A stretch of DNA of 63,997 nucleotides, filler included, from Bonamia ostreae (taxonomy: Eukaryota): NCBI GenBank assembly GCA_040357525.1. It is 11 parts of 11 records of this genome, joined end to end, with 100 filler letters (N's around TTAATTAATTAA, not from the genome) between each part and the next. Parts side by side here need not be neighbours in the genome. Positions count along the whole stretch, not along the records: positions 52,975 to 58,652 come from JBDODL010000170.1; 10 more parts are not named here. One strand, given 5' to 3'. Positions 51,921 through 58,652 of this stretch are shown here, in pieces. Positions within the stretch are counted from its first letter, which is position 1, and each line of letters begins with the position of its first letter. The position numbers were made by a program, and so were the translations under genes. The notes beneath the pieces were generated by a model that worked only from the letters and a program-made list of their open reading frames with translations, did not search any database and was not told the DNA's origin.

Positions 51921-52131
51921 GACGATAGGATTTTTACCTCTTAAAACGGAATATTCTAAATTTGTAACCTGAATATTCTAAAATTGTTCAGCATCGATTG
52001 ATTATACTAAAAGGGGAATTTGATAAAAAAAATTGCTAAACAACAATGTTAATTAAAATAAAATTTATAATTTGAAAAAGTAATTTTATAATTTAAAAAA
52101 ATAAATTTAGAATAAATTCTAAAAATAACAA

Positions 52132-52874
52132 ATGTCGTTTATTTCCAGAAAATTTACAATAATTATCTTCTTCTCGGCAGTTTTTCCATATCAGTTAGAT
52201 AACACTAATGGAATATATAAATACTTTGGTCGGTCGAAAATTAATTTAGATGATGGATTTTATAATATGAAATGCCAATATTCAAAAGAAACCAAAATTG
52301 TTGTAATTAGTAAAAACAAAATTAATATAACAAACAAATGCCCTTCTTTACGCTGCTATAAAAACGAAAATATAAAATTAACGTGTAAAGGAGATAAATG
52401 TAAAATGGATGTTAAAGGAAATTACAAGTTGGTGCTATATGGCGGAAATTATAATAATCTACCATGTTCATTAAAATACGGAATTAAAGCAAATATCAAA
52501 AAGACAAAACCTGTTGCAATAAAAACGATATTGGTTTTTTATGAAATAAAACGAGAGAAACCAAATATGGATCTTTTTTCAACAAATTGTCAAATTATCG
52601 AAGAAGTTGTTAAGATAAACAAATACTGCTATTTGAAAACGAGCAAAAATTATTTGTTTTCCTTTGATGACAAAAAATTAAACACTATCAATTTTAACGA
52701 TGTTGAGGATGAATCTTCTGTAAGTATAGTTTCGAAGTTAGAGTGTGTGTTCGCCAAAATCGAATTGAAAGCAAACAACATCAAAAGTGTCTGCAATAAA
52801 ATAAACGGAAAATTCAGAGGAGAATGTTTAATCGGTTGTCAAAAAGGGTTTGAAATCGGATCAAAAGATTCTAC
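52132..52874 (+). CDS. Secreted Cys-rich protein, paralog of 48711-51029; 3' truncated
   Basis: Signal peptide. KCQYSKE...KCPSLRC...LTCKGDKC and LECVF...SVCNKINGKFRGECLIGCQKG align by eye with the 48711 gene. Confidence 0.7.
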
Positions 52875-53096
52875 NNNNNNNNNNNNNNNNNNNNNNNNNN
52901 NNNNNNNNNNNNNNNNNNTTAATTAATTAANNNNNNNNNNNNNNNNNNNNNNNNNNNNNNNNNNNNNNNNNNNNAACTGAGTAAACGCTCATAACGGAAT
53001 TTGACTTTATCACAAAATTTTACTTTTGAGAAAATTTGAAATGACTTTTTTGTGATAAAATTTTTTTGTGAAACCGGTTTTAATAATTCGCTAAAA

Positions 53097-53170
53097 CACT
53101 CTTGCCGGGATTTGAACCCGGAATCTACTCCTTAGGAAGGAATCGCCTTAACCAATTGGGCCACAAGAGC
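53097..53170 (-). tRNA. tRNA-Arg(CCT)
   Basis: GCTCTTG/CAAGAGT acceptor stem, D-arm TGGCCCAATTGGTTAAGGCG, anticodon loop TTCCTAA, T-arm CCGGG-TTCAAAT-CCCGG. Confidence 0.95.
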
Positions 53171-53267
53171 ATTATAATTTATTCTATTTTTGAGTTTATA
53201 AAGTTTATGACAAATCTATTTTTTAAATGGCCACGTCATCAAAACTGGAATTTTAGTGTACAAAGAT

Positions 53268-54535
53268 TTACAATTCTTTGACTAGAAATCTCACATCACA
53301 ACTTAATCTTAAGTTGCGAGACGTGTTGATCGACGCGCCATGAACAGTCTTAATGTTGAAAACGATAATATCGCCACCTTCCATTTCAGGAGCGATTTCC
53401 CAAACAGAATTTTTGTCGAATCCAGTCGGAACTTGTTTTCCGAATTGTGGCAAATCAAAGTTTGCCAAATTTTGGGATTTTGGGCTGATTCCGAGAATGC
53501 TGTTTGACGGTTTATATTTTTCGCCCAAACAAATCCAACAAGTGTAAGCGCCAAAAAACGAAGATGCACATTCTTTGCAATGGAATTCGCCTTCGTTGGC
53601 AAAATCTTGTGATATTTGCATTTTTGAAATTTTTGGGTTCGCAAATATAACCAAAAACGTTTTTTTGACAACGAGTTTTTTCTCTCGCCGTCTAAACAAT
53701 CCAAATGCGAAAGTTTCGCGCATAGCGCGCATTTTCTGAATTCAGTTTCTTTCGTGCTCTTTCTGCAAACAAAGCAATTTTCTTTGCCAAACCCGAAATT
53801 TCCGATTCTTTCTTTTTTGATTTCCTTCGCGAAAATGTTGAAGACCGACTCGTTTTTAAAATAGTAATAATCCTTTGAAATTTATTTTTTGTTTGATTTA
53901 AATTTTTTCAAAACGGCGTGTTCTTGTGTTGCGCCATTTCTGCCAATTAATCTCAGCCAACTTTGATCAGAAAGCATTTTGATGTTTCCAAAAACAGATT
54001 TTAGTAAACCATTTAGTGAAAGTCCGTCATAGATTTTTTTAAGCTCTTTGCTTTGACATAAATCTTTCCATTTTTCGGTATCGAAATTAGGCTTTTCTTT
54101 AGTTTCTTTGCCGGAAATCATTTGAACGGTAAAGCCTTCTTTATTTTCATCGTTCAAAACGGCGATGTTCTTCCCGAAATTGAGTTTTTTGGCCAAATTG
54201 GAATTTGCCAAAAAAACAAAAATTTTTTTTCGAGCGGTTTCGATAGTTTTTTTGTCAAAAAAGTTTTTCAAATAAAAATAGCCATCTCTGTCGATTTTTT
54301 CTTTTATATTCTTATAATCCTCGTTTTTGAGAAAATCGTTGCTAAATTTTTGAATAAATTTAGAAAGATTAAAATTTGCTTGGAACCTATTTTTTAGAGG
54401 AAACAAATTTTTTCCTGGAGCTAAGAGGTAGTTTCCGATTTGAATTTTGGTTTTGTTAAATAAATTTTTGTTTTTTTTCAAAATTAATTTTGAGTTTGTT
54501 TTAATTTTTGATTTTTCGATTTTATTTAATGGCAT
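53268..54535 (-). CDS. PhyH-family 2-oxoglutarate/Fe(II) dioxygenase with an inserted PHD finger
   Basis: IDRDGYFYLKNFFD, WLRLIG..ATQEHA|DYYYF, C4HC3 insert, YTCWICLG and GDIIVFNIKTVHGASIN....RLSCDVRF; two GT-AG introns. Confidence 0.85.
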
Positions 54536-55100
54536 TTTTCTGATTTATTTTTGGCTAAATTAAACTGAAAACAAAATTTTAAATTAATGCGCTAAATATT
54601 TAAATTATTTTAGTTGTTTTAAGAAATCTCAAAAAATTGCAAAAAAATCTTTTGTGTAAAAATAAAAATTATCGTGTACAAATTATAAATCTTCGGAAAC
54701 GATAAGGAATGACGGAAATGAGGCAATTTCAGACATTGAAAAAGAGAGTCGAAAAAATCAGAAAATAAAATTTGCAAAATGAGAAAAATGGCCAAACTAA
54801 AAAAAAAGATGAAAAAAACGTTTAGAAAGTCTAAAATAAATTTGAGTAAATTTTATGTTTTGCTATTCTGACAAATTTAATTTGAATTTTTTTGAAATAC
54901 AAATTTACATTAAATGTTTTAACGAAAAATGTTTTTATGATTACAAAAGTTTTTATTTGACGGAAAATAGAAAAAGGTTCAAAAAATATTTTGTTGGTAT
55001 TAAAATCTTTACAATATTTTTGAAATAAAAATTAATCCTTCGGAACTATTATCACATTCAATACAAATTTCTATTAAATAAATGCAAAAAACAATATTCA

Positions 55101-58128
<3,028 letters not shown>

Positions 58129-58256
58129 TTCTGAAATTTGAGGTGATTTTAATATCAATTTTACCAAATATTTTATTACAATTTCAGGTTAAAACAACAA
58201 TTTTATAAAACAATTTGAATATTTTATATTTGAAAAAAAAGATAAAATTTACTTTA

Positions 58257-58652
58257 TCACTTGTTTTTGCTTTTTTTGTAGCGAGGTTTTATGATATTTT
58301 TCGCGTTGTTTTCATCGCTATAACTGTCGTAACTTTCACTTCTTCGACTTCGACTTCTTTTTCGACTTTTGTTATTATGTTCCAATTTAAGTTCTACTCT
58401 CATTTGCACTTGTCTGGCGCAATAAGCACGCCATGACTCTTCATTGAAGCCGTAATTAAAGTAATCGCTCAAGTCAGATCCACTTTTCCGCCACGGCTTT
58501 TCCGAAAGAGAGTCGATGTCCAAGTCGTAAATGCTCGGATACAACTTTTTGTTTTCGGCAGATGCCATTCCTTTCGTCGCAACTTCAAAATTTGTTTCTC
58601 CGCTGGTTTTGTTACTTTCAACGTTTTGGTCTTTGAACTGATCTTCTTCTTC
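58257..58652 (-). CDS. FIP1: Pre-mRNA 3'-processing factor FIP1, 5' truncated
   Basis: DLDIDSLSEKPWRKSGSDLSDYFNYGFNEESWRAYCARQ. Confidence 0.92.
   Translation of the reverse strand, partial: EEEDQFKDQNVESNKTSGETNFEVATKGMASAENKKLYPSIYDLDIDSLSEKPWRKSGSDLSDYFNYGFNEESWRAYCARQVQMRVELKLEHNNKSRKRSRSRRSESYDSYSDENNAKNIIKPRYKKSKNK

Follow-up and report, generated by a model that had tools for sequence, protein, structure and literature searches.

In a 63,997-nucleotide stretch of DNA from Bonamia ostreae, called the window here, a gene on the minus strand (54535..53268) encodes a protein that is almost certainly an oxygenase of the phytanoyl-CoA dioxygenase (PhyH) type with a PHD-type zinc finger nested inside its catalytic domain. 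Bonamia ostreae is a haplosporidian (Rhizaria) and a parasite of flat oysters. The protein, P0002, is predicted to depend on Fe(II) and 2-oxoglutarate (2OG), and its finger lies between the strand that carries the HxD iron ligands and the next strand of the core. The evidence leans towards chromatin or another nuclear protein as its target; that it specifically demethylates methyl-lysine is doubtful.

The reading frame begins with an ATG at 54535 and ends with a stop codon at 53270-53268. Removal of three introns, which all start with GT, end with AG and have a G+C content of 14-28%, joins four exons into a frame of 375 amino acids. This spliced translation is letter-for-letter the public model MHBO_000860 (P0002, a hypothetical protein of Bonamia ostreae), to which UniRef gives the name 'Phytanoyl-CoA dioxygenase'. 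The parts of the gene are as follows, in window positions and in the order of translation.

53268..54535 (-): whole coding region, four exons and three introns, from the spliced translation and the spliced contig described below
54387..54535 (-): exon 1, residues 1-50, last codon split; a Lys-rich tail and the start of a conserved N-terminal motif
54342..54386 (-): intron 1, 45 nucleotides, GTTCCA..ATTTAG; skipped in the contig, its removal restoring the motif that is aligned in relatives
53915..54341 (-): exon 2, residues 50-192; covers the PhyH fold's N-terminal half as far as H191-A192
53918..53920 (-): H191, the His of HxD and first iron ligand; invariant
53873..53914 (-): intron 2, 42 nucleotides, GTTTTG..TCAAAG, phase 0, between A192 and D193 of HxD; skipped in the contig
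53659..53872 (-): exon 3, residues 193-264; D193, helices 194-214, a linker and finger ligands 1-6; retained by the spliced contig
53870..53872 (-): D193, the Asp of HxD and second iron ligand; invariant
53568..53776 (-): nested PHD-type finger C225-C276 (C4HC3), broken by intron 3; from Pfam, phmmer, the family profile and a model pLDDT (predicted local distance difference test) of 83-94
53606..53658 (-): intron 3, 53 nucleotides, GT..AG, phase 1, within the finger; skipped in the contig
53268..53605 (-): exon 4, residues 264-375 and stop; the finger's final CxxC, then the C-terminal half of the PhyH fold
53529..53549 (-): AYTCWIC, residues 283-289, core beta strand re-entering the barrel seven residues past the last zinc ligand; strand 283-289 of the model
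53340..53342 (-): H352, distal iron ligand; invariant, aligned with the matching His motif of PtlH
53307..53309 (-): R363, predicted partner of the 2OG C5-carboxylate, 11 residues after H352; aligns with R-x-S-x-D-T-R of PtlH

Insight into the splicing of this gene comes from an independent public sequencing run (X1), in which one contig of 1103 nucleotides spans 53251-54493 at high word depth. The contig omits exactly 53606-53658, 53872/3-53913/4 and 54342-54386, each of which reads CT..AC on the plus strand, and it unites all four exons in frame, the Cys-rich exon included. Run X1 is not on record as RNA, and its contig is best explained as complementary DNA because all three introns are missing from it; since the contig retains the Cys-rich exon, that exon is present in spliced transcripts. 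The second public run compared at the locus (X2) gave no contig. Three bases in the last exon differ between the X1 contig and the window (53448, 53521 and 53568), two of them synonymously and one as E292G, and these differences presumably represent strain variation. An earlier, sequence-only reading of this stretch had removed two introns, one splitting H-A|D (53914-53873) and one within the finger (53658-53606). Both are real, but it had overlooked a third at 54386-54342. Every peptide segment that it quoted is found in the sequence at its place, and the exon skipping that it named as a risk is answered by the spliced contig.

MHBO_000860 is on record as two proteins, P0002 and P0001 (379 amino acids). 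The latter keeps the 53-nucleotide intron 3, and the resulting frameshift leaves it without the last CxxC, H352 and R363; it is probably an unspliced form caught by transcript-based annotation. Passages of the genome report describe an annotation made with funannotate and published transcriptome reads, on a 12.24-Mb assembly of 33.3% G+C with a mean of 2 introns per mRNA (PMC11069148). A ciliate-type reassignment of a stop codon, by which the in-frame 42-nucleotide intron would be read through, was also considered and rejected; it would wreck the HxD motif, and it is contradicted by the spliced contig.

The oxygenase core is recognized by sequence and by predicted structure. The Pfam model PhyH (PF05721) matches P0002 with 29.6 bits, above its cut-off of 22. 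The alignment covers model positions 128-211 of 213, which is the C-terminal half only, because the insert splits the domain; exon 4 by itself scores 23.9 bits. Pfam gives no JmjC match to P0002 even at an expectation value (E) of up to 1. The AlphaFold2 model, whose input alignment held 45 relatives, has a mean pLDDT of 89.6 and a predicted template modelling score (pTM) of 0.88, and its weak parts are residues 1-30 (pLDDT 40-64) and 201-220 only. Searched against PDB with Foldseek, the model has at least 353 matches at E <=0.001, of which PtlH is the best (E 6e-12), followed by SnoN, SptF, AndA, FtmOx1, EctD, EasH, AsqJ and PrhA. A VIA-align search of 48,161 representative chains listed 50 rows, all of them barrel enzymes; among these rows PtlH scores Z 18.6 (root-mean-square deviation 2.9, 228 aligned), PHYHD1 Z 15.4 and human PHYH Z 15.3. 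The JmjC-type proteins JMJD7, FIH and JMJD5 score Z 11.2-11.7, under more than 30 rows of PhyH-clan enzymes and prolyl hydroxylases. A search of ESM Atlas gave PhyH leads that were weak (best 0.83, below the 0.9 level), and the Atlas contains no structure of P0002.

Residues H191, D193, H352 and R363 are the same in 45 of 45 aligned relatives and in all 104 relatives that cover them, and the spacing of H352 to R363 is equal to that of human PHYH. Thus the sequence-only reading, which had proposed a PhyH-type 2OG-Fe(II) dioxygenase outside the JmjC group with its HxD...H triad and distal Arg intact, agrees with the Pfam result, with all four residues and with the fold, which is closest to PtlH, PHYHD1 and PHYH (JmjC structures reach Z 11-12 vs 15-19 for PhyH types). 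By sequence and model, P0002 is a predicted enzyme, an intact PhyH-type Fe(II)/2OG oxygenase and not a JmjC protein.

The insert contains eight potential zinc ligands, all present (C225, C228, C240, C243, H248, C251, C273 and C276), in the spacing C-x2-C-x11-C-x2-C-x4-H-x2-C-x21-C-x2-C, with a Phe two residues ahead of the seventh ligand. The C4HC3 pattern that had been noticed at 53568-53776 maps, as C225..C276, to exactly those coordinates. Pfam aligns PHD (PF00628) to P0002 from end to end (model positions 1-47 of 47) with 18.8 bits, as against 10.1 bits for RING and 11.5 bits for C1, and exon 3 by itself gives 20.2 bits for PHD. When P0002 is compared by phmmer with PDB sequences, it matches the PHD finger of PHF21A (E 0.014). 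In the AlphaFold2 model, which holds no metal, the finger has short strands at 237-239 and 246-248 and a short helix past the last CxxC. These results, together with a family profile that matches dozens of solved PHD fingers, bear out the earlier choice of PHD rather than RING. On this evidence the insert of P0002 is a divergent PHD-type finger, in a family whose insert, as judged from alignments, is a PHD finger.

The segment YTCWIC, which follows the finger, was considered as a source of a ninth or tenth zinc ligand. This was ruled out; the segment is the conserved core strand after the insert, and in 69 full-finger rows of the family T285 is kept in 94%, W287 in 99% and C286 in 68%, with C289 in only 9%.

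The nested layout is not peculiar to Bonamia. When 1.84 billion cluster representatives were searched exhaustively with phmmer, 310 relatives were recovered at E <=0.001, 121 at <=1e-10 and 23 at <=1e-30. The best 150 phmmer matches and five word-index matches were used for a family alignment and a family hidden Markov model (154 rows without P0001), and ligands were counted in the 113 rows that span both flanks of the insert. All eight ligands are present in 65 of these rows, and at least zinc site 2 (pairs 2 and 4) in 107; site 1 without site 2 is found in 0 of the 113. Site 2 is absent from six, and in three of the six (P0051, P0080 and P0088) the distance from the HxD Asp to the next conserved Trp is 14-43 residues vs 93 in P0002. 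The PHD cut-off of Pfam is passed by 49 of 153 relatives, with a maximum of 50.1 bits, and the precomputed Pfam annotation of P0155 contains both PF05721 and PF00628.

A profile made from the 45-sequence alignment finds 135 PDB sequences at E <=0.01. It matches PhyH enzymes (PtlH at 3.3e-15, PHYH at 2.6e-11), and at positions ~220-277 it matches PHD fingers with E from 1e-12 to 1e-7, among them those of Cph2 (1.6e-12), CHD4 (2.1e-12) and PHF21A (1.8e-9), and further those of MLL3, DPF3, ATXR5, PHF12, UHRF1, WSTF, BAZ2A, KDM5A/B/D and KAT6A. We take the PDB fingers most like the insert to be mostly readers of the unmodified H3 N-terminus, which is a lead only. Beyond the ligands, the family consensus of the finger has an acidic run, (T/L)-L-(I/L)-C-D-L-C, (F/Y)-H-x2-C-L-x-P-P-L and P-x-G-E-W-H-C-x2-C-A. 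The pattern is beyond chance, because it is kept across hundreds of clusters and matches PHD profiles. A His that is no zinc ligand stands just ahead of the seventh ligand (W-H-C; H272 in P0002) in 77% of the 69 full-finger relatives. To our knowledge this is not a usual feature of PHD fingers, and the His could face the active site.

These alignments show the nested layout, as predicted from sequence, to be conserved in a large family. The sequence-only reading had spoken of an independently assembled enzyme; this is reasonable for the architecture, but the assembly is a trait of the family and not an invention of Bonamia. The family is apparently eukaryotic. A scan of viral contigs (IMG/VR) gave 10 pattern matches and no relative, and a scan of prokaryotes (one genome each from 185,579 species) gave 39 pattern matches and no relative, each scan using one short peptide pattern and so being weak evidence of absence. 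When P0002 was compared by tblastn with the 63,997-base window, the gene itself was the sole match.

On balance, the explanation that we favour is that P0002 is an active PhyH-fold oxygenase whose PHD finger docks a protein tail for oxidation. A complete PHD-type finger is inserted into the loop after the HxD iron-binding strand of a predicted active oxygenase, and it is probably fixed firmly next to the entrance of the active site, because its last zinc ligand lies seven residues from the next core strand and because the model predicts one confident body. The finger would then be a built-in dock for the tail of a protein, with the histone H3 N-terminal tail as the likeliest candidate, as in the solved PHD fingers that it most resembles. 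Once the tail is docked, a side chain close by would reach the ferryl centre and be hydroxylated there. The outcome would be a stable hydroxylation or, where the target is an N-methyl group, demethylation.

Links to chromatin come from domains found by a Pfam scan of the 153 relatives, which are predicted proteins. A SET domain lies C-terminal to the oxygenase in P0052 and P0070, P0136 contains a JmjC domain and P0102 contains an HMG box; P0083, a relative without the insert, has a MYND finger, and P0106 has a sub-threshold match to ubiquitin. When compared with PDB sequences, the SET-fused P0070 and the JmjC-fused P0136 gave no matches, and P0052 matched PHD fingers only. The N-terminal tails of several relatives are rich in Arg and Lys and may serve as nuclear localisation signals. 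Chromatin targeting is thus plausible from the sequences, and unproven.

In the open-access full texts searched, no paper was found on a PHD finger within a PhyH domain. A 2012 synthesis places all histone demethylases except the LSD1-type amine oxidases in the Jumonji-related superfamily (PMC3417536). A PhyH-type enzyme with a PHD finger of its own, and with kin that bear SET, JmjC or HMG domains, is a concrete candidate, open to testing, for a chromatin oxygenase that does not belong to this superfamily. As the family is large, biochemical work on one member would give an annotation to many protist genes. Passages of the genome report put the reduced gene set of Bonamia ostreae at 5253 gene models (PMC11069148); that the gene is kept in such a set with all catalytic and zinc ligands suggests that the parasite needs it.

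A bolder idea, which we think unlikely, is that the family represents a third lineage of oxygenases for histone tails, derived from PhyH and acting as demethylases or hydroxylases, apart from JmjC and TET/AlkB, in which the finger acts as a fixed ruler. The H3 N-terminus docked on the finger in the barrel would then set which downstream residue meets the iron. If this were true, the SET- and JmjC-fused members would be single-chain write/erase units.

Several observations weigh against a docking role. All close structural relatives found by Foldseek and VIA-align act on small molecules or free amino acids. The PHD score of P0002 lies under the Pfam cut-off of 24, so that the Pfam check proposed by the sequence-only reading for the spliced protein is passed by PhyH but not by PHD; P0011, from Cercozoa sp. 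M6MM, is likewise under this cut-off with all eight ligands in place. The finger departs from the family consensus at R238 (Leu), A241 (Asp), S247 (Phe/Tyr), G254 (Pro) and F271 (Trp), and its position relative to the iron site derives from chain connectivity and pTM only. SET, JmjC or HMG domains occur in only 4 of the 153 relatives, all from predicted gene models.

Loss of zinc ligands within the family is a further point of this kind. Site 1 is incomplete in 42 of the 113 rows while site 2 is kept: pairs 1 and 3 are jointly incomplete in 29, pair 1 is incomplete with pair 3 kept in 12, and a single row lacks pair 3 only. Such a pattern would be expected of a cross-braced finger, in which one zinc is bound by pairs 1 and 3, and speaks for cross-bracing indirectly. 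The 29 rows in which both site 1 pairs are incomplete and site 2 is kept have what may be called a 'half PHD'; examples are P0004, P0008, P0016, P0021 and P0152-P0154. In a quick maximum-likelihood tree of the non-insert columns (79 rows, after 75 of 154 were dropped for having less than 60% of columns filled; support from the Shimodaira-Hasegawa-like approximate likelihood ratio test only, midpoint root), P0002 belongs to a 10-member group (support 92); the other members are P0011, three proteins with a full finger and a clade of five that keep only site 2. By parsimony, 8 changes are needed to account for the loss of pair 3, and well-supported branches make at least 4 of them unavoidable. 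Site 1 thus disappeared repeatedly, at least 4 times, while site 2 was kept, and it follows that the family does not depend on a full reader finger.

The alternative that survives best, and which we hold to be unlikely, is that P0002 is a metabolic PhyH enzyme acting on a small molecule, a lipid-CoA or a free amino acid, in which the zinc module is a structural lid or a stabiliser of the post-HxD loop with no reader role. The substrates of the top structural matches (PtlH, SnoN/K, AsqJ, KanJ, EctD, proline hydroxylase and PHYH) speak for it, as do the repeated loss of site 1, the sub-threshold finger of Bonamia and the identity of the part that is retained, which is the zinc site beside the re-entry strand (site 2, 107 of 113). 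It is harder to reconcile with the 49 of 153 relatives whose finger is above the PHD cut-off, with the match of the family profile to histone-reading PHD fingers at E down to 1e-12, with the SET, JmjC and HMG fusions, and with the surface consensus (the acidic stretch, L-L-C-D-L-C and P-x-G-E-W-x-C), which is kept and would be needless for a mere staple. If the finger were merely a structural staple, a reader domain would prove to be reusable as the lid of an enzyme.

A chromatin-recruited oxygenase that acts on a base of DNA or RNA, as TET/JBP or AlkB do, with the finger serving for recruitment only, seems quite improbable. One relative does carry a DNA-binding HMG box, NgTET1 appears in the fold search (VIA-align Z 11.7), and DNA-acting 2OG oxygenases with reader modules are described in PMC3417536. 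However, NgTET1 lies far below the PhyH-clan scores, at a level that reflects mainly the shared barrel; Pfam finds no nucleic-acid-binding feature in P0002; and the SET and JmjC partners point to the methylation of proteins, not to DNA. The idea that the gene is decaying, or an artefact of annotation or assembly, with the finger exon outside the functional product, is close to refuted: the public intron-retaining model P0001 is frame-shifted and lacks H352 and R363, and the contig is just 5678 bp in a fragmented assembly, but the independent run gives a spliced contig with four exons in frame, at high word depth and with three base differences (two synonymous), all catalytic and zinc ligands are intact, and orthologues have the same layout, one of them in Cercozoa sp. 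M6MM.

The predicted architecture fits 2OG oxygenases with built-in chromatin-reader modules. What the protein is, as predicted from sequence and model, seems solid; the case for what it does is circumstantial.

The window itself is a chain of contigs of ~5.7-5.9 kb, joined by 11 linkers of the form N44-TTAATTAATTAA-N44 (5840-58752, e.g. 52875-52974), and it also holds three 100-N gaps (31327, 37153 and 51638). Because the pieces are joined by linkers, gene neighbourhood across a linker is meaningless. The piece with the oxygenase gene (52975..58652, 5678 bp) has ~29% G+C. On it, a tRNA-Arg gene (anticodon CCT; 53096-53171, minus strand) lies ~100 bp downstream of the oxygenase stop on the same strand. 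Upstream, 55101-57493 (minus strand) resembles a cGMP/cAMP-dependent protein kinase gene split by short introns, with two cyclic-nucleotide-binding domains (42 and 48 bits) and, at 41 bits, the first part of a protein kinase domain; its C-terminal open reading frame, 55101-55511, has no Pfam match at E up to 0.001. An open reading frame at 58257-58652 (minus strand) has a strong motif of Fip1, a polyadenylation-factor subunit (85 bits), and is truncated at the contig end. On the preceding contig, an open frame of 265 amino acids with many Cys, Lys and Asn residues extends into the linker (52129-52874, plus strand).

Among known systems, PtlH, PHYH, PHYHD1, SnoN/SnoK, EctD and AsqJ share with P0002 the fold, the HxD...H motif, the Arg 11 residues after the distal His, and PF05721. 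The top-ranked structural alignments of solved PhyH enzymes, with low root-mean-square deviation, cover ~184-233 of the model's 375 residues and bracket the insert, which none of them appears to match; their known substrates are small molecules, acyl-CoAs and free amino acids. The insert in turn resembles in sequence the fingers of PHF21A (BHC80), CHD4, DPF3, UHRF1, BAZ2A, ATXR5 and KAT6A, which have the same C4HC3 spacing, and PHF21A-like fingers share with P0002 the aromatic residue two positions ahead of the seventh ligand. Those fingers are free-standing or in tandem, whereas that of P0002 is nested in an enzyme and lacks several consensus residues.

TET/JBP enzymes are similar in being chromatin-acting 2OG oxygenases with an insertion in the catalytic fold, which passages of PMC2938197 describe as Cys-rich and metal-binding. 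They differ in several ways: within the classical 2OG oxygenases they are a separate family, what is inserted in them is no PHD finger, their substrates are DNA bases, and NgTET1 scores only Z 11.7 against the model.

The closest functional analogy is KDM5/JARID1 (Jumonji/SMCX), in which a PHD finger likewise lies inside the sequence of a 2OG oxygenase with a double-stranded beta-helix. The PHD1 finger of KDM5A binds unmodified H3K4 and stimulates catalysis. The PHD fingers of KDM5A, KDM5B and KDM5D are matched by the profile of the present family. KDM5 belongs to the JmjC superfamily; in contrast, P0002 belongs to the PhyH family and has no JmjC match in Pfam. In KDM5, according to passages of PMC2938197, ARID and PHD are inserted in an extended catalytic (JmjC) fold. 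The point of insertion also differs: the finger of P0002 comes directly after the HxD strand, whereas that of KDM5 lies ahead of the core barrel.

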